Below are positions 1-21,194 of a DNA stretch of 21,194 bases, one piece after another (positions within the stretch are counted from its first letter, which is position 1; each line of letters begins with the position of its first letter). This DNA is from a virus (Duplodnaviria > Heunggongvirae > Uroviricota > Caudoviricetes), in the IMG/VR virus record IMGVR_UViG_2537561991_000022. The stretch is one strand, 5' to 3'. Both the position numbers and the translations under genes were made by a program. The notes beneath the pieces are model-generated. The model was given only the letters and a program-made list of their open reading frames with translations. It did no database searches and was not told the origin of the DNA.

Positions 1-1284
1 TTACTTCTTCGCCTCTGCAACCACTTTACTACCCACGCCGCGGTTATTGTATTCCCACATGCGGTTGTAGTTAGTGTCATTCAGATTGCGCTGTATTTCG
101 TCGTTATCATCTACGCTGCCGGTATTACCCGCAAACGGACGATTAGAGATCACCGCATCGGCCCACGGTTTAGCCGTGTTAAAACCTTCGTTGATGGCGC
201 TATCACGGATCACCACCTGACCGTTGGTATTGGCATCAACATCCAGCGAGCGGCCCAGTTGCGCCACACCATCACCGAAAGCATTGAAACGGCTGTTTAC
301 GGCGAGGAAACCGTAGTAAATGTTGGACAGCGTAGCCGGTGCAAACACATACGCTTCTTGCTGAGTACGTGAGTTCACCACGCGGAATTCGGTGTTATCG
401 AACACCACTGCGCCGCGACCAGAAACGATATCCACATCCCCTTCAATGTAGCTGTTGGTCACCAGCGTACGCGGCTGACGGTTGGTTTCCAGACGGTTCT
501 GCACACCGCTGTTGGTGACAAAGAAGGTGTTCTGACGACCGAGAATGTTAACGTTGTTAATCTGTACCTGGTCACCATCAGTACGCAGTGCCACCGCCGG
601 ATGGTTACCTGCATCTACGCTATCGCCCAGCGTGTTTTCGATGGTCAGATTTTGCAGTTGCAGGCCATTGTTTTGTGACCAGAAGACCGCAGAGCAGAGA
701 ACACCGATACTGTCGCTGCGTTTGCTCTGGCAGCTATCGTACATATACCACGCTGGTTTACCTGGCATATATTTGCCGCGCGGGTTGACGTCGTGACGCC
801 AGTCGGCAGGGCTCATGCCCCCATCAAGGGAAAGCCCAATCTTCACATCAATCGGTTTTTCACCTGTACCGTACAGAGTAATTCCACCCGGAGCAGCAGG
901 GACATACACCGTTCCCTGATACTCACCAGGCATCACGGCAATATACTGGCGCTTGTTAGTGCGCTTGATAATTGCCGCATCTACCGCCGCCTGAATCGTG
1001 GTATGCGTTACACCTTGAGTACCCGCCGGGCCGACAACAAAGTCAGGTTGCGCAGGCAGGGTAATCGGGGAAGGATTCCACGCTGCAGCACCTGGTGTCA
1101 GGGATGCAAAATAGTGTTGAGCATCGAAATTCTGCGCTTCTTTTGCCGACAGAATCGGGCGAGAAGAGGTACCAGGCGCGGTTTGATCAGAAGGACGTTG
1201 ATCGGGTGGTGTTGAGCTACAGGCGGTCAGCGTCACGCCAAAAGCCAATGCCAGCGCCAGACGGGAAACTGAAAATGTGTTCAC
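1..1284 (-). CDS. ybhC: Host outer-membrane lipoprotein YbhC (pectinesterase-fold / acyl-CoA thioesterase family), flanking attB-lambda
   Basis: Complete 427-aa ORF with lipoprotein signal MNTFSVSRLALALAFGVTLTAC (lipobox LTAC). Recognised from memory as E. coli YbhC, the gene next to the lambda attachment site. Confidence 0.85.
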   Translation of the reverse strand: MNTFSVSRLALALAFGVTLTACSSTPPDQRPSDQTAPGTSSRPILSAKEAQNFDAQHYFASLTPGAAAWNPSPITLPAQPDFVVGPAGTQGVTHTTIQAAVDAAIIKRTNKRQYIAVMPGEYQGTVYVPAAPGGITLYGTGEKPIDVKIGLSLDGGMSPADWRHDVNPRGKYMPGKPAWYMYDSCQSKRSDSIGVLCSAVFWSQNNGLQLQNLTIENTLGDSVDAGNHPAVALRTDGDQVQINNVNILGRQNTFFVTNSGVQNRLETNRQPRTLVTNSYIEGDVDIVSGRGAVVFDNTEFRVVNSRTQQEAYVFAPATLSNIYYGFLAVNSRFNAFGDGVAQLGRSLDVDANTNGQVVIRDSAINEGFNTAKPWADAVISNRPFAGNTGSVDDNDEIQRNLNDTNYNRMWEYNNRGVGSKVVAEAKK

Positions 1285-2738: not shown

Positions 2739-2775
2739 GTAAGCGTGCAGCAAGAACCGTATTGACGGGGATGTG

Positions 2776-4314
2776 TTATTCAGTCGGCAGTGCTACGCGC
2801 CAGGGGAGCAGTTCGCCGACCCGGTTTATCGGCCAGTCGGCTATGACGTCAAGGACATAGCGGAGGTAGCTTTCTGGCTCCACTCCGTTCAGTTTGCACG
2901 TCCCGATCAGGCTGTACAGCAGCGCTCCCCGCTCTCCTCCATGATCCGAACCGAAGAACAGGTAGTTTTTGCGGCCCAGACTGACCATCCGCAACGCATT
3001 TTCAGCGATGTTATTGTCCGCCTCAGCCCAGCCATCATCTGCATAGTACGTCAGCGCCGGCCACTGGTTCAGGGCGTATGCGAACGCTTTCGCCAGTTCT
3101 GAGTGTCGCGACAGGGTTTTCATCTTTTCACGCAGCCAGCTTTCCAGGGATTTCAGCAGCGGTTTCGTTTTCAACTGACGTTCGGCAAGGCGCTGCTCCG
3201 CCGTCATTCCCCTTATCTCTGCCTCGATGGCGTACAGTTCGCCGATCCGTTTCAGCGCTTCCTCCGTCAGGGCTGACGGGGTGCGAACGTGCACATCGTG
3301 GATTTTACGGCGGGCGTGAGCCCAACAGGCGGCTTCCGTTATCCGGCCATCCCGGTACAGCTCGTTGAACCCGGCGTATGCATCCGCCTGCAGTACACCA
3401 CTGAACCCCGCAAGATGGGTCTGCGGATGGATGCCTTTTCTGTCCGGGCTGTAAGCGAACAACACCGCCGGCGCCAGCGTTGACCCGGCGTTACGGTCGT
3501 CACGAACGTAGGTCCATAACCGCCCGGTCTTCGTTTTCTTATTGCCTGGCAACAGCACCGGGACAGGCGTGTCATCAGCATGGAGCTTACCGTCAGTCAG
3601 CACATAGTCCTGAAGCGCTTCTTCCAGCGGTGACAGTAGCCGGCAGCATGCATCCACCCAGCCCGACAGCAGTGAACGACTCAGCTCCACGCCCTGGCGG
3701 CCGTACATTTCAGACTGGCGGTACAGCGGGGTGTGCTCTGCATACTTTGAGATCAGCACGCGGGCCAGCAGCCCCGGTCCTGCGATACCCCGCTCGATGG
3801 GCCGTGAAGGCGCGGGGGCCTGCACGATGGCATCGCACTGAGTACAGGCATGCTTTTCACGTACAGTCCGGATAACCCGGAAGGCGCTGCGCATCAACTC
3901 CAGCTGTTCGGCGGCATCCTCACCCAGATAGCTCAGTGAGCCTCCACATTCCGGGCAGCATGATGCTGCCGGCAGCAGCCGTTTTTCATCGCGGGGGAGT
4001 GATTCGGGGAACGGTTTGCGGGTGCGGGTTTGACGCAGCGGGCGCTGCACGGCCGGGTCGTCAACCCGACCGGTAAGGGTATCACTTTCTTTCTGAAGTG
4101 CCTTCAGGTCAGCTTCCATCTGTGCGATACGACGGGAGACTTTTTCGGAGCGGCTGCCGAAGTTCATCCGGCGCAGCTTATCCAGCTGTGCCTGCAGATG
4201 GTCTATTTCGCGTTCACGCTCGTTCAGCTTTTCCAGCAGGGCACGGTTCAGCGCCTCCTGTTCGGCAAGGAGACGTTTCAGTGCATTGATATCGTCAGGA
4301 AGTGAGCTGCTCAT
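2776..4314 (-). CDS. tnpC: IS66-family transposase TnpC
   Basis: 512-aa ORF with an N-terminal coiled-coil/leucine-zipper-like region ([38 protein letters not shown]) and a CxxC...CxxC cluster, typical of IS66 transposases. Confidence 0.9.
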
Positions 4315-4362
4315 ACCGGGTATATTACCAGGCTCATTCAGCGTCGACCAGGATAAAGAGGC

Positions 4363-4710
4363 TTACAACATAGTCAGGGACGTAAGCAGTCTTTTAGGCT
4401 GCCGCCAGTCGATACCTTCCAGCAGCATCGCCAGCTGTGCCGGTGTGAGGAACACTTTGCCATCCCGGGCTGACGGCCAGGCGAAGCGGCCGCGCTCCAG
4501 CCGTTTGGTCAGCAGACACAGTCCATCGCCGGTAGACCAGAGGAGCTTTACCTGACTGCCATTACGCCCACGGAAGATAAAAACGTGACCTGACATCGGA
4601 TCGTCTTTCAGCGTCGTCTGCACCTTTGCCGCCAGGCCGTTGAAGCCGTTTCTCATATCGGTGATGCCAGCGACCAGCCAGATCTTTGTCCCTGATGGTA
4701 ATGGGATCAA
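4363..4710 (-). CDS. tnpB: IS66-family accessory protein TnpB (Orf2)
   Basis: 115-aa ORF MIPLPSGTKIWLVAGITDMRNGFNGLAAKV... matches the conserved IS66 Orf2 family from memory; sits between tnpA and tnpC. Confidence 0.85.
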   Translation of the reverse strand: MIPLPSGTKIWLVAGITDMRNGFNGLAAKVQTTLKDDPMSGHVFIFRGRNGSQVKLLWSTGDGLCLLTKRLERGRFAWPSARDGKVFLTPAQLAMLLEGIDWRQPKRLLTSLTML

Positions 4711-5111
4711 CGTTTGAGCTCCCGTATCAGCAGGTTCAGGATATTTTCGCTGATGGCACCATTCAGACGGAGTGATCCGTGCCGGAACGTCACTTCACAG
4801 CTGATATTGAGTGATTCAGGTGTCGCAGCAGCTACAGGTTGTGACCGGGGGGAGGTTGTAGGGACAACATCTTCGGCATCAAGTGTTATCGGGAGCAGCT
4901 CAGGCACGTTGTTTTCTGTTGTTGAAGGAGGACGTAGTTTTCCTTCGCGCCAGTACTGGCGCCACTTGAACAGCAAATTATCGTTGATCCCATGCTCACG
5001 AGCGAGTTGCGCTACGGAGATCTCTGGTCGATGCGAGAGTTCAACCATTTTGATTTTGAACTCAACGGGATAATTAGGGCTTTTTTTACGCACTGCGGTT
5101 AATGATTTCAT
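4707..5111 (-). CDS. tnpA: IS66-family accessory protein TnpA (Orf1, HTH)
   Basis: 134-aa ORF; overlaps the tnpB start by 4 nt (ATGA coupling) as in IS66 elements; first gene inside the right inverted repeat. Confidence 0.85.
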   Translation of the reverse strand: MKSLTAVRKKSPNYPVEFKIKMVELSHRPEISVAQLAREHGINDNLLFKWRQYWREGKLRPPSTTENNVPELLPITLDAEDVVPTTSPRSQPVAAATPESLNISCEVTFRHGSLRLNGAISENILNLLIRELKR

Positions 5112-5192
5112 GGATAGCGTCCACCATATTTGGTGTCCACTATTCTCTCAGGAATTTCAGGATCTGCCAGACGGTGCTGAGACGACGCTTAC

Positions 5193-5200
5193 GCTTGGTG
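5193..5200. repeat. Right copy of the 8-bp target-site duplication GCTTGGTG
   Basis: Identical to 2731-2738, immediately outside the IS terminus ...gacgacgcttac (5192). Confidence 0.7.
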
Positions 5201-7367: not shown

Positions 7368-8044
7368 CGCCATTGCTCCCCAAATACAAAACCAATTTCA
7401 GCCAGTGCCTCGTCCATTTTTTCGATGAACTCCGGCACCATCTCGTCAAAACCCGCCATGTACTTTTCATCCCGCTCAACCACGACATAATGCAGTCCTT
7501 CACGCTTCATACGCGGGTCATAGTTGGCAAAGTACCAGGCATCTTTTCGCGTCACCCACATGCTGTACTGCACCTGGGCCATGTAAGCTGACTTTATGGC
7601 CTCGAAACCACCGAGCCGGAACTTCATGAAATCCCGGGAGGTAAACGGGCATTTCAGTTCAAGGCCGTTGCCGTCACTGCATAAACCATCTGGAGAGCAG
7701 GCGGTACGCATACTTTCGTCGCGATAGATGATCGGTGATTCAGTAACATTCACGCCGGAAGTGAACTCAAACAGGGCTCTGGCGTCGTTCTCGTACTGTT
7801 TTCCCCAGGCCAGCGCTTTAGCGTTAACTTCCGGAGCCACACCGGTGCAAACCTCAGCAAGCAGGGTGTGGAAGTAGGACATTTTCATGTCAGGCCACTT
7901 TTTTCCGGAGCGGGGTTTTGCTATTACGTTATGAACTTCTGAAGCTGTGATGACGCCGAGCCGTAATTTGTGCCACGCATCATCCCCCTGTTCGACAGCT
8001 CTCACGTCGATCCCGGTACGCTGCAGGATAATGTCCGGTGTCAT
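7364..8044 (-). CDS. exo: Lambda exonuclease (Red-alpha)
   Basis: 226-aa translation [65 protein letters not shown]... matches lambda Exo; start overlaps the bet stop (ATGA). Confidence 0.95.
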
Positions 8045-11661: not shown

Positions 11662-13014
<1,353 letters not shown>

Positions 13015-13022
13015 GACATTCC

Positions 13023-13054
13023 CGCTCTTACACATCCCAGCCCTGAAAAAGGGC
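13023..13054 (+). promoter_or_regulatory. nutR: nutR (boxA CGCTCTTAC, boxB GCCCTGAAAAAGGGC)
   Basis: boxA at 13023-13031 and boxB hairpin at 13040-13054, identical to lambda nutR as remembered. Confidence 0.8.
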
Positions 13055-13078
13055 ATCAAAATAAACCACACCTATGGT

Positions 13079-13098
13079 GTATGCATTTATTTGCATAC
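13079..13098 (+). terminator. tR1-region hairpin (Rho-dependent terminator in lambda)
   Basis: Stem gtatgca/tgcatac with loop tttatt between nutR and cII, at the lambda tR1 position; no strong U-tract, consistent with Rho dependence. Confidence 0.45.
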
Positions 13099-13133
13099 AT
13101 TCAATCAATTGTTATCTAAGGAAATACTTACAT

Positions 13134-13427
13134 ATGGTTCGTGCAAACAAACGCAACGAGGCTCTACGAATCGAGAGTGCGTTGCTTAACAAAATCGCAA
13201 TGCTTGGAACTGAGAAGACAGCGGAAGCTGTGGGAGTTGATAAGTCGCAGATCAGCAGGTGGAAGAGGGATTGGATTCCAAAGTTCTCAATGCTGCTTGC
13301 TGTTCTTGAATGGGGTGTCGTCGACGACGACATGGCTCGATTGGCACGACAAGTTGCTTCGATTCTCACCAATAAAAAACGCCCGGCGGCAACCGAGCGT
13401 TCTGAACAAATCCAGATGGAATTCTGA
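13134..13427 (+). CDS. cII: Lambda CII transcriptional activator
   Basis: 97-aa frame MVRANKRNEALRIESALLNKIAMLGTEKTAEAVGVDKSQISRWKRDWIPKFSMLLAVLEWGVVDDDMARLARQV... matches lambda CII. Confidence 0.95.
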   Translation: MVRANKRNEALRIESALLNKIAMLGTEKTAEAVGVDKSQISRWKRDWIPKFSMLLAVLEWGVVDDDMARLARQVASILTNKKRPAATERSEQIQMEF

Positions 13428-13450
13428 GGTTATTACTGGAACTATCAACA
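13373..13450 (-). ncRNA. oop: OOP antisense RNA (overlaps the cII 3' end)
   Basis: Minus strand reads GTTGATAGTTCCAGTAATAACCTCAGAA...CCGCCGGGCGTTTTTTATT, ending in a GC hairpin plus U-tract (plus 13371-13389); matches lambda OOP from memory. Ends approximate. Confidence 0.55.
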
Positions 13451-13459
13451 GGAGTCATT

Positions 13460-14292
13460 ATGACAAATACAGCAAAAATACTCAACTTCGGCAGAGGTAA
13501 CTTTGCCGGACAGGAGCGTAATGTGGCAGATCTCGATGATGGTTACGCCAGACTATCAAATATGCTGCTTGAGGCTTATTCAGGCGCAGATCTGACCAAG
13601 CGACAGTTTAAAGTGCTGCTTGCCATTCTGCGTAAAACCTATGGGTGGAATAAACCAATGGACAGAATCACCGATTCTCAACTTAGCGAGATTACAAAGT
13701 TACCTGTCAAACGGTGCAATGAAGCCAAGTTAGAACTCGTCAGAATGAATATTATCAAGCAGCAAGGCGGCATGTTTGGACCAAATAAAAACATCTCAGA
13801 ATGGTGTATCCCTCAAAACAGGGGAACACAAAAGACACTAATACAAAAGAAAATAGAAAAGATTATTCGTCAGAGAATTCTGGCGAATCCTCTGACCAGC
13901 CAGAAAACGACCTTTCTGTGGTGAAACCTGATGCTGCAATTCAGAGCGGCAGCAAATGGGGGACAGCAGAAGACCTGACCGCCGCAGAGTGGATGTTTGA
14001 CATGGTGAAGACTATCGCGCCATCAGCCAGAAAACCGAATTTTGCAGGGTGGGCTAACGATATCCGCCTGATGCGTGAACGTGACGGACGTAACCACCGC
14101 GATATGTGTGTGCTGTTCCGCTGGGCCTGCCAGGACAACTTCTGGTCCGGTAATGTGCTGAGCCCGGCCAAACTCCGCGACAAGTGGACCCAGCTCGAAA
14201 TCAACCGTAACAAGCAACAGGCAGTCGTGACAGCCAGCAAACCAAAACTCGACCTGACAAACACAGACTGGATTTACGGGGTGGATTTATGA
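13460..14292 (+). pseudogene. O: Replication initiator O, disrupted by a frameshift inside the origin iteron region
   Basis: N-terminal 119 aa (MTNTAKILNFGRGNFAGQERNVADLDDGYARL...ISEWCIPQN) in one frame and the C-terminal ~162 aa (YPSKQGNTKDTNTKENRKDYSSENSGESSDQPENDLSVVKPDAAIQSG...WIYGVDL) in another; frames meet at 13807-13819. Confidence 0.85.
13808..13825. repeat. Single remaining ori-lambda iteron (ATCCCTCAAAACAGGGGA) followed by the AT-rich origin segment
   Basis: One copy of the iteron with internal dyad TCCC...GGGA; lambda as I remember it has four tandem copies here. Confidence 0.6.
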
Positions 14293-14990
14293 AAAACATC
14301 GCCGCACAGATGGTTAACTTTGACCGTGAGCAGATGCGTCGGATCGCCAACAACATGCCGGAACAGTACGACGAAAAGCCTCAGGTACAGCAGGTAGCGC
14401 AGATCATCAACGGTGTGTTCAGCCAGTTACTGGCAACTTTCCCGGCGAGCCTGGCTAACCGTGACCAGAACGAACTGAACGAAATCCGCCGCCAGTGGGT
14501 TCTGGCTTTCCGGGAAAACGGGATCACCACAATGGAACAGGTTAACGCAGGAATGCGCGTAGCCCGTCGGCAGAATCGACCATTTCTGCCATCACCCGGG
14601 CAGTTTGTTGCATGGTGCCGGGAAGAAGCATCCGTTATCGCCGGACTGCCAAACGTCAGCGAGCTGGTTGATATGGTTTACGAGTATTGCCGGAAGCGAG
14701 GCCTGTATCCGGATGCGGAGTCTTATCCGTGGAAATCAAACGCGCACTACTGGCTGGTTACCAACCTGTATCAGAACATGCGGGCCAATGCGCTTACTGA
14801 TGCGGAATTACGGCGCAAGGCTGCCGATGAACTGTCCTGTATGACCGCACGAATTAACCGTGGTGAGGCTATACCTGAACCAGTAAAACAACTTCCTGTC
14901 ATGGGCGGTAGACCTCTAAATCGTGCACAGGCTCTGGCGAAGATCGCAGAAATCAAAGCTAAGTTTGGGCTGAAAGGAGCAAGTGTATGA
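14289..14990 (+). CDS. P: Lambda P (DnaB helicase loader)
   Basis: 233-aa translation MKNIAAQMVNFDREQMRRIANNMPEQYDEKPQVQQVAQIINGVFSQLLATFPASLANRDQNELNEIRRQW... matches lambda P. Confidence 0.95.
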   Translation: MKNIAAQMVNFDREQMRRIANNMPEQYDEKPQVQQVAQIINGVFSQLLATFPASLANRDQNELNEIRRQWVLAFRENGITTMEQVNAGMRVARRQNRPFLPSPGQFVAWCREEASVIAGLPNVSELVDMVYEYCRKRGLYPDAESYPWKSNAHYWLVTNLYQNMRANALTDAELRRKAADELSCMTARINRGEAIPEPVKQLPVMGGRPLNRAQALAKIAEIKAKFGLKGASV

Positions 14991-20436: not shown

Positions 20437-20955
20437 ATGAGTTGTAAGCCAATGTTATCATCTTGTATTGGGGTGGTTATGAAGGATGGTGCGCTGCTCA
20501 GGAGTTCTTCACTTTTTATTGCCTACATGGGATGCCTTGGATGGGGGAGTGCTTATTTCTATGGATGGGGTACTTCTTTTTACTACGGCTTCCCATGGTG
20601 GATTGTAGGTGCAGGTGTTGATGATGTTGCCAGAAGTTTATTTTTTGCAGTTATCGTCATTGCTATATTTCTTATCGGTTGGGGTATTGGTGTTGTATTC
20701 TTTTTCGCAGTGAAAAGAAAACATTCTATGCAAGAGCTAAATGTATTTCGCCTTTATTTTGCTGTGGAATTATTGTTTGTGCCGGCAATTATTGAGTTTT
20801 CTATATTGAGACAGAAGATTCAGGTACCTCTTTTGCTACTGTCAGCAGCGATTGCGCTGGCGGTTACAATTTCGATAAGATCTTATGGGCGATTTTTATC
20901 GGTATCATGCTTCTATGATAAGCCATTTATAAAAAACATTTTTTTGAGATTGTGA
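20437..20955 (+). CDS. Hypothetical polytopic membrane protein (Gly/aromatic-rich TM segments); likely start at 20479
   Basis: ORF with about four hydrophobic segments (e.g. WWIVGAGV, LFFAVIVIAIFLIGWGIGVVFFFAV, LLLLSAAIALAVTISI); AT-rich; stop TGA overlaps the next gene's ATG (TGATG). Confidence 0.5.
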   Translation: MSCKPMLSSCIGVVMKDGALLRSSSLFIAYMGCLGWGSAYFYGWGTSFYYGFPWWIVGAGVDDVARSLFFAVIVIAIFLIGWGIGVVFFFAVKRKHSMQELNVFRLYFAVELLFVPAIIEFSILRQKIQVPLLLLSAAIALAVTISIRSYGRFLSVSCFYDKPFIKNIFLRL

Positions 20956-21194
20956 TGATTGCTTTTGTGGCATATTTTTGGCTTTTTTCATTTCTGACAG
21001 GATATTACAAACCACAGTTTAAGAAAGAATATGAAATGATTAATTATAATGATGGTTGGTATTATGTTCTTGCTCGTTATGATAATTGTCTGGTTTTGTC
21101 TACTTCTTTCAATGCAGGTAGTAAAAGGTTTGTCATTTATCAATCAGCACAAGATAAGAATCTTCAGGTTGATATTGTAAGGACCAGAATTTAA
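20952..21194 (+). CDS. Hypothetical small membrane-anchored protein (one N-terminal TM plus ~55-aa soluble domain)
   Basis: 80-aa ORF MMIAFVAYFWLFSFLTGYY..., coupled to the upstream gene; stop codon is the last three bases of the window. Confidence 0.45.
   Translation: MMIAFVAYFWLFSFLTGYYKPQFKKEYEMINYNDGWYYVLARYDNCLVLSTSFNAGSKRFVIYQSAQDKNLQVDIVRTRI

Follow-up and report, generated by a model that had tools for sequence, protein, structure and literature searches.

A 434-type prophage with a split replication gene

The window, by which we mean the whole stretch of 21,194 nucleotides analysed here (IMG/VR record IMGVR_UViG_2537561991_000022), holds the genes and features listed in Table 1. A megablast search of phage records returned phage 434 (OL657226) as clearly the best match to the whole window, with 82% coverage and 99.6% identity, and the identity of the two from int to Q was 99.5-99.7%. 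Homology to 434 begins at window position 1331, which corresponds to the annotated attP core of 434, and the same attachment core is present in the window. Because the 434 match starts from the attachment core and ybhC lies on its left, the window represents the left, early part of a 434-type prophage at att-lambda. It belongs to this class by its 434 immunity, its int and xis of the lambda type and its attachment core by ybhC. The contig ADUO01000201.1 (GCA_000188775.2) was identical to the window (100%) over 17,735 bp and ends 135 bp past it; GCA_902838225.1 and GCA_900016365.1 come from sibling strains. The window stops short of the late region and attR, whereas in sibling contigs the prophage extends at least to the holin.

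Table 1. Features of the window around the immunity region, gene O and the replication origin (ori)
Feature	Position	Strand	Remarks
ybhC (pectinesterase family, 427 aa)	1-1284	-	host gene adjoining the prophage in sibling loci
434 immunity region and cII	12063-13427	mixed	100% identical to 434
cI	12063-12695	-	100% identical to 434
cro	12799-13014	+	100% identical to 434
cII	13134-13427	+	100% identical to 434
oop RNA region	13374-13460	-	mapped from the 434 annotation; sequence identical to 434
Frameshifted O ORF, 154 aa	13460-13924	+	residues 1-120 native O, residues 121-154 out of frame
O C-terminal remnant (residues 138-299), out of frame	13804-14292	+	holds the part that the literature suggests binds P
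Deletion junction, 13-bp microhomology TATCCCTCAAAAC	13807-13819	+	common to 434 iterons 1 and 4
Sole remaining ori iteron ATCCCTCAAAACAGGGGA	13808-13825	+	identical to 434 iteron 4
AT-rich unwinding region of ori	13826-13867	+	unchanged from 434; coordinates mapped from lambda 39119-39160 (PMC3349717)
P (replication gene, helicase loader)	14289-14990	+	intact, 233 aa; protein 100% identical to 434 P

As shown in Table 1, the replication gene O is represented by two overlapping frames. The 434 O protein aligned with the window by tblastn at E=1.6e-165, and the in-frame 299-aa O, with its N-terminal domain and C-terminal part, was not found, since the first ORF stops at 13924. Native O runs through N120 (...NISEWCIPQN) and is followed by 34 out-of-frame residues up to a TGA; the C-terminal frame opens at an ATG at 13801 and ends at 14292 (163 aa). 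An earlier, sequence-only reading of this DNA had described O as two frames meeting on a single iteron. The alignment confirmed this arrangement, the native N-terminal part being 120 aa long rather than the 119 aa given there, and it likewise confirmed that one 12-mer is read in two ways, ATCCCTCAAAAC giving IPQN in the N-terminal frame and (Y)PSK(Q) in the C-terminal one. The same reading had considered the initiator protein lost. This applies to the linker and the C-terminal part, which are missing in frame from the 154-aa product, whereas the Phage_rep_O domain (PF04492) is retained there in full (residues 22-115, E=3.7e-37, profile positions 2-95 of 95). No sequence relative of O was found in the PDB, and the domain limits were taken from Pfam and the literature. 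For the purpose of annotation, the two ORFs at 13460-14292 would be described as one O pseudogene together with a crippled ori.

To survey the remainder of the early region, we aligned the other 37 annotated proteins of 434, from int through the gene after Q, with the window by tblastn. Full-length matches at 92-100% identity were obtained for int, xis, exo, bet, gam, kil, cIII, N, the Nun-like gene, hex, cI, cro, cII, P, ren, the nin genes and Q, with xis 100% and int 99.7% identical to their 434 counterparts; PF06992 was present in P of the sibling loci. Three genes depart from this pattern: hyp33 is missing, hyp34 has had its last codon cut by an IS insertion, and a gene for a TfpB-like protein carries a frameshift. 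Between window positions 7976 and 16310, only 2 SNPs separate the window from the 434 laboratory phage besides the deletion described below. The O/ori lesion is the sole evident defect of the early region, and the intactness of every other early gene indicates that it is young.

Three other differences from 434 were noted. Window 2739-5192 is occupied by a 2,454-bp insertion sequence of the IS66 family, with minus-strand ORFs of 134, 115 and 512 aa, terminal inverted repeats GTAAGCGT and ACGCTTAC, and an 8-bp target duplication at 2731-2738 and 5193-5200. It sits between xis and the homologue of gene 34 (55 aa), on the route that the pL transcript takes to xis and int, and is absent from the four sibling loci that span its site (L004, L005, L008 and L012). 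About 450 bp of 434 (2892-3341 of the 434 locus, L001), including the hypothetical gene 33, have no counterpart at window 2722-2738/5193; the gene spacing suggests that this segment is missing from the sibling prophages too, as a natural difference from the laboratory phage that is independent of the IS. Finally, the gene of the TfpB-like membrane protein (434 gene 68, 247 aa) is split at window 20931 into ORFs 20437-20955 and 20952-21194 because an A-run has become one base shorter (6 A in the window against 7 in 434). This allele is not specific to the present prophage, as its 167-aa product was indexed in 428 blocks of the assembly collection described below, some of them with an intact O.

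A 67-bp deletion between iterons 1 and 4 of ori

The window lacks exactly 67 bp of phage 434 (OL657226), between ori iterons 1 and 4 and inside gene O. The left match to 434 reaches window 13819 (434 11968), and the right match reaches back to 13807 (434 12023). While 434 and lambda have four 18-bp iterons each in O, the window has one: the annotated gpO sites of 434 are ATCCCTCAAAACGAGGGA, ATCCCCTAAAACGAGGGA, ATCCCTCAAATTGGGGGA and ATCCCTCAAAACAGGGGA, and only the last is left. When these 67 bp were removed from 434 in silico, the resulting sequence and the window agreed at every base (0 mismatches) between -120 and +1600 relative to the iteron. The AT-rich region still lies directly to the right of the iteron, and the window is identical to 434 from 13826 on. 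As ori is contained within O and 67 bp do not make up whole codons (67 mod 3 = 1), the same event frameshifts O. Thus, two defining features of the lambda-type replication module, the four iterons and the in-frame 299-aa O, are missing from the window, and the others are kept.

The sequence-only reading had anticipated a recombination between direct iteron repeats that removed a stretch not divisible by three, together with most of the binding sites at ori. The alignment with 434 bears out the repeats, the length and the loss of sites (three of the four O-binding sites), and it narrows the event down to a deletion with a 13-bp microhomology at its junction. Where that reading had named lambda as the reference phage, the fitting reference proved to be 434, whose O/ori is of the lambda type. 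Phage 434 shares with the window identical cI, cro, cII and P and the attachment core; the wild-type phage differs in its four iterons and intact 299-aa O, and the window in its IS66-family insertion, the lack of gene 33 and the 1-bp deletion in the TfpB-like gene.

Losing the DNA between two short direct repeats is a textbook mark of slipped-strand mispairing or short-homology recombination. The longest direct repeat of the 434 ori is the 13-mer in iterons 1 and 4, the next ones being 11, 10 and 10 bp long. The deletion in the window would accordingly have arisen by one of these two routes, which the sequence cannot tell apart. Among the iterons, four repeat pairs of 8 bp or longer were found, spaced 67, 20, 23 and 44 bp apart; as three divides none of these spacings, deletions across any of the pairs would likewise frameshift O.

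Occurrence of the deletion

We searched for the deletion in public assemblies. The exact 154-aa frameshift product was indexed in 41 blocks of a public assembly collection, from which at least 24 contigs were examined, including five NCBI assemblies, Logan assemblies of SRA runs and ENA metagenome assemblies; in IMG/VR, 2 contigs carry the one-iteron junction. Between 4 and 51 SNPs separate the fetched loci from the window, and the loci also vary in whether they have the IS element and a 1-bp indel elsewhere, which marks them as independent isolates rather than copies of one record. In the eleven fetched loci with the junction, the DNA of cI, cro, cII, the O-fragment and P was identical where complete, the lone exception being a synonymous SNP in P of one locus (L003). 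The four-iteron block was found in at least 120 IMG/VR contigs and was 109 bp long in all matches listed; the 118 four-iteron IMG/VR contigs that were examined further contained 12 sequence variants of it.

The junction was absent from 5,426 complete E. coli genomes, in which an 81-bp query gave only two-piece matches spanning 148 bp, and exact-pattern scans did not find it in GTDB species representatives or in JGI metagenome contigs. A second pattern scan found no two- or three-iteron variants in the GTDB species representatives. A protein search with the junction and the out-of-frame tail returned four short fragments only, because the 90%-identity clusters that were searched are represented by intact O; it did reveal a lambda-type deletion allele in E. 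coli PA48. For tracing the late genes of the deleted lineage, Q and TfpB proved too widespread (15,591 and 428 blocks), and the places they returned were other prophages. Given its absence from the complete genomes, the GTDB representatives and the JGI contigs, the deletion marks a small E. coli lineage, in which it is inherited vertically, as expected of a prophage able to spread only in this manner.

The same junction in a second O allele

The IMG/VR contig L002 and contigs of E. coli PA48 and of GCA_000614885.2 have the same iteron 1/iteron 4 junction in another O allele. From the last base of the iteron on, this allele showed 0 mismatches to lambda (+0 to +288), against 7 to the window. 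Over -100 to +300, three intact four-iteron IMG/VR contigs (L119, L043 and L096) were identical to L002, and four others (L127, L133, L051 and L090) were identical to the window. As each deletion allele has an intact parent of its own, the deletion seems to have recurred independently, and the parsimonious reading of these sequences is that two identical deletions occurred, one in a 434-type and one in a lambda-type O allele. A common origin of the two alleles was rejected, since each matches a different intact four-iteron allele over this interval. For just the deletion to pass from one allele into the other, a crossover would have to fall in the 17 bp on the right of the junction.

Predicted effect on replication

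By analogy with lambda genetics, from which the failure to replicate is inferred, the deletion is very probably a null lesion in the replication module of the 434-type prophage at att-lambda. The loss of 67 bp between the 13-bp repeats of iterons 1 and 4 leaves a single iteron next to an intact AT-rich region, and the same event shifts the frame of O after residue 120. The lone iteron 4, reported as the least efficiently bound, would be unable to assemble the four-dimer O-some, and the truncated O would keep its DNA-binding domain and lack the part that recruits P-DnaB. Firing of the origin would then be defective both in cis and in trans, and induction would be followed neither by DNA amplification nor by a normal burst. 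With three iterons and the C-terminal part of O gone, the prophage is predicted to be without initiation of theta replication even when O comes from another prophage: a second lambdoid prophage in the cell might provide O in trans, and the cis defect would remain.

This predicted defect agrees with published lambda genetics. O has to be bound to the four iterons for the O-some to form, and iteron 4 is the one bound least efficiently (PMC7466680). In PMC6022878, the 24-bp deletions r93 and r98, each removing about one iteron, are described as abolishing ori function, the O protein of r98 as failing to complement, and an O lacking its last 5 residues (294 of 299) as null; the C-terminal region of O is suggested there to bind P. 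Judged from its sequence, the prophage is a defective (cryptic) one, carrying in an essential lytic function a lesion that is inactivating by virtue of the O frameshift and the deletion of three of the four iterons. We have thus identified a single lesion that would make a near-pristine phage-434 prophage defective, and we predict that strains with the deletion will not release 434-type phage.

Other losses of the replication module in E. coli

Replication-module loss is common in related prophages. A second lesion of O consists of a three-iteron block that is 28 bp shorter and frameshifts O (L016-L018, and L149 at NC_013361.1 899597-900468). About 329 complete E. coli genome records match this shorter block at 99% identity or higher, and in the one record that we checked, that of E. 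coli O26:H11 11368, PGAP labels O as 'replication protein, frameshifted'. Among att-lambda prophages, two have an IS inside O (L142 and L146), and in another (L150), a Q-like gene is attached to an O that breaks off at 218 aa. Four att-lambda remnants (L139, L144, L145 and L147) have deletions from exo or bet to ninE.

Two observations stand beside these lesions. The exo/bet-to-ninE deletions, seen in the att-lambda relatives of the L139, L142, L144-L148 and L150 group, take out the immunity and O-P together. In a further locus (L015), the block is 27 bp shorter and keeps the frame across the iterons, with one A differing in the middle iteron, and O is interrupted upstream.

Alternative explanations

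A deletion between repeats, seen in a draft assembly and at a contig end, could in theory reflect collapsed repeats in a genome that truly has four iterons and an intact O. We give this artefact almost no credence: the shared repeat is 13 bp long, below any assembler k-mer and therefore too short for a collapse to be expected, and the four-iteron block was assembled correctly in at least 120 IMG/VR contigs. Moreover, the identical junction and product occur in independent assemblies (NCBI, Logan, ENA and IMG) with SNP differences and an IS difference between them, which excludes the sequencing error in a single O frame that the sequence-only reading had named as its possible refutation. If the deletion is real, the split O might still function, either as an N-terminal part acting with a reinitiated C-terminal part to fire the single-iteron origin or through a -1 ribosomal slip in the A-rich tract that restores a shortened O. 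The complete Pfam DNA-binding domain and the intact AT-rich region and P are in keeping with this, as is a 123-aa ORF called by gene callers in the O C-terminal frame, from a GTG at 13921 to 14292, on which the TGA stop of the upstream ORF overlaps (GTGA, in the 13918-13924 region). Reinitiation at this GTG would in principle yield a free O C-terminal fragment; inspection of the sequence, however, showed no evident Shine-Dalgarno before it. The length of the four-iteron block, which is invariant in the at least 120 contigs, argues against a working single-iteron origin, as do the requirement of the O-some for O on four iterons (PMC7466680), the loss of ori function when a single iteron is deleted and the inability of the r98 O to complement (PMC6022878). 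Taken together, we regard a functional split O, by either route, as highly improbable.

The null lesion could, on the other hand, owe its presence to selection, if loss of O/ori spared partially derepressed lysogens replicative killing or P toxicity and the iteron array were a hotspot supplying such mutants. The identical deletion that arose twice, the related att-lambda remnants that have lost the replication module through an IS in O or large deletions, and the approximately 329 records with the shorter iteron region (O being 'frameshifted' in the one checked) speak for it; so do laboratory survivors of N+ prophage induction, which have out-of-frame O/P deletions or insertions (PMC6022878). 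Mutation bias alone, however, predicts recurrence equally, the junction is absent from the 5,426 complete genomes, and P is still intact. In addition, kil and the lysis genes still make induction of an otherwise intact prophage lethal to the host, which leaves little survival benefit in losing O alone. We therefore consider positive selection unlikely, if worth keeping in mind. A wider version holds that the iteron array is a recurrent mutational fuse, fixed repeatedly in E. coli lineages because it protects lysogens from runaway in-situ replication or P toxicity, and a first step of domestication. With direct repeats inside the frame of the initiator, at spacings that are not multiples of three, one slippage would destroy both the cis site and the trans factor. 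The two identical events and the abundant frameshifts of the iteron region are compatible with this version and with mutation bias equally, and we find it doubtful; if it were true, iteron collapse would be the preferred first step of prophage domestication. Finally, the remnant could have been co-opted, the truncated O or the oop-iteron segment hindering superinfecting lambda-type replicators by a dominant-negative effect or by origin titration. The truncated O does keep its DNA-binding domain, oop and iterons on plasmids inhibit lambda-type phages (PMC3349717), and ectopic ori copies are reported to arrest lambda proliferation (PMC4488673). The published inhibition, however, needed iterons 3-4 and a multicopy plasmid (PMC3349717), as against one iteron in single copy here; the N-terminal O product is transcribed from pR, which the intact 434 cI is inferred to repress in the lysogen; and no spread beyond the small lineage was seen in complete E. 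coli genomes, GTDB representatives or JGI contigs. Co-option is thus very hard to credit.

Relation to known mutants and pseudogenes

Read as a null mutation of the replication module, the lesion in the window is a natural counterpart of the lambda ori-minus r mutants and of the out-of-frame O mutants that outlive replicative killing (PMC6022878), and it resembles the O pseudogenes of RefSeq. The mutants that it replays have been known since the 1970s. The r mutants (r93, r98, r96 and r99; Rambach, Denniston-Thompson, Hayes) likewise have small ori deletions in O that abolish the origin. Theirs, however, are in frame (12, 15 or 24 bp), came from N-minus prophages and removed at most one iteron, whereas the lesion in the window is 67 bp long, out of frame and natural, has taken away three iterons and lies in a 434-type prophage. 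The RK-minus 'ilr' survivors of induced N+ cryptic lambda (Hayes laboratory), as described in PMC6022878, similarly carry out-of-frame O/P lesions that stop initiation at ori; they differ in having been selected in the laboratory, from an engineered fragment that cannot be excised, and the text consulted there describes no iteron 1/iteron 4 deletion among them. The O pseudogene of E. coli O26:H11 11368 (ECO26_RS31175) is also frameshifted within a prophage iteron array with P and ren retained. Its block, in contrast, is 28 bp shorter and keeps three iterons, the prophage is without an immunity region, and its type is represented by about 329 records, against 0 of 5,426 complete genomes for the 67-bp lesion.

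The picture of lambda replication is unchanged by these results, the lesion being a real but ordinary route to a defective prophage. Since the deletion appears to have arisen twice and other O frameshifts in the iteron region are common, the repeats that make up the origin may leave lambdoid prophages vulnerable to losing their autonomy.

An 8-bp direct repeat, ACAAAAGA, with a spacing of 15 bp lies in the AT-rich region of 434 (12044-12066 of the 434 locus, L001; window ~13828-13850). In size and approximate place, it matches the 15-bp in-frame deletion of lambda r96 (PMC6022878). This match suggests that r96 may also have arisen by repeat slippage.
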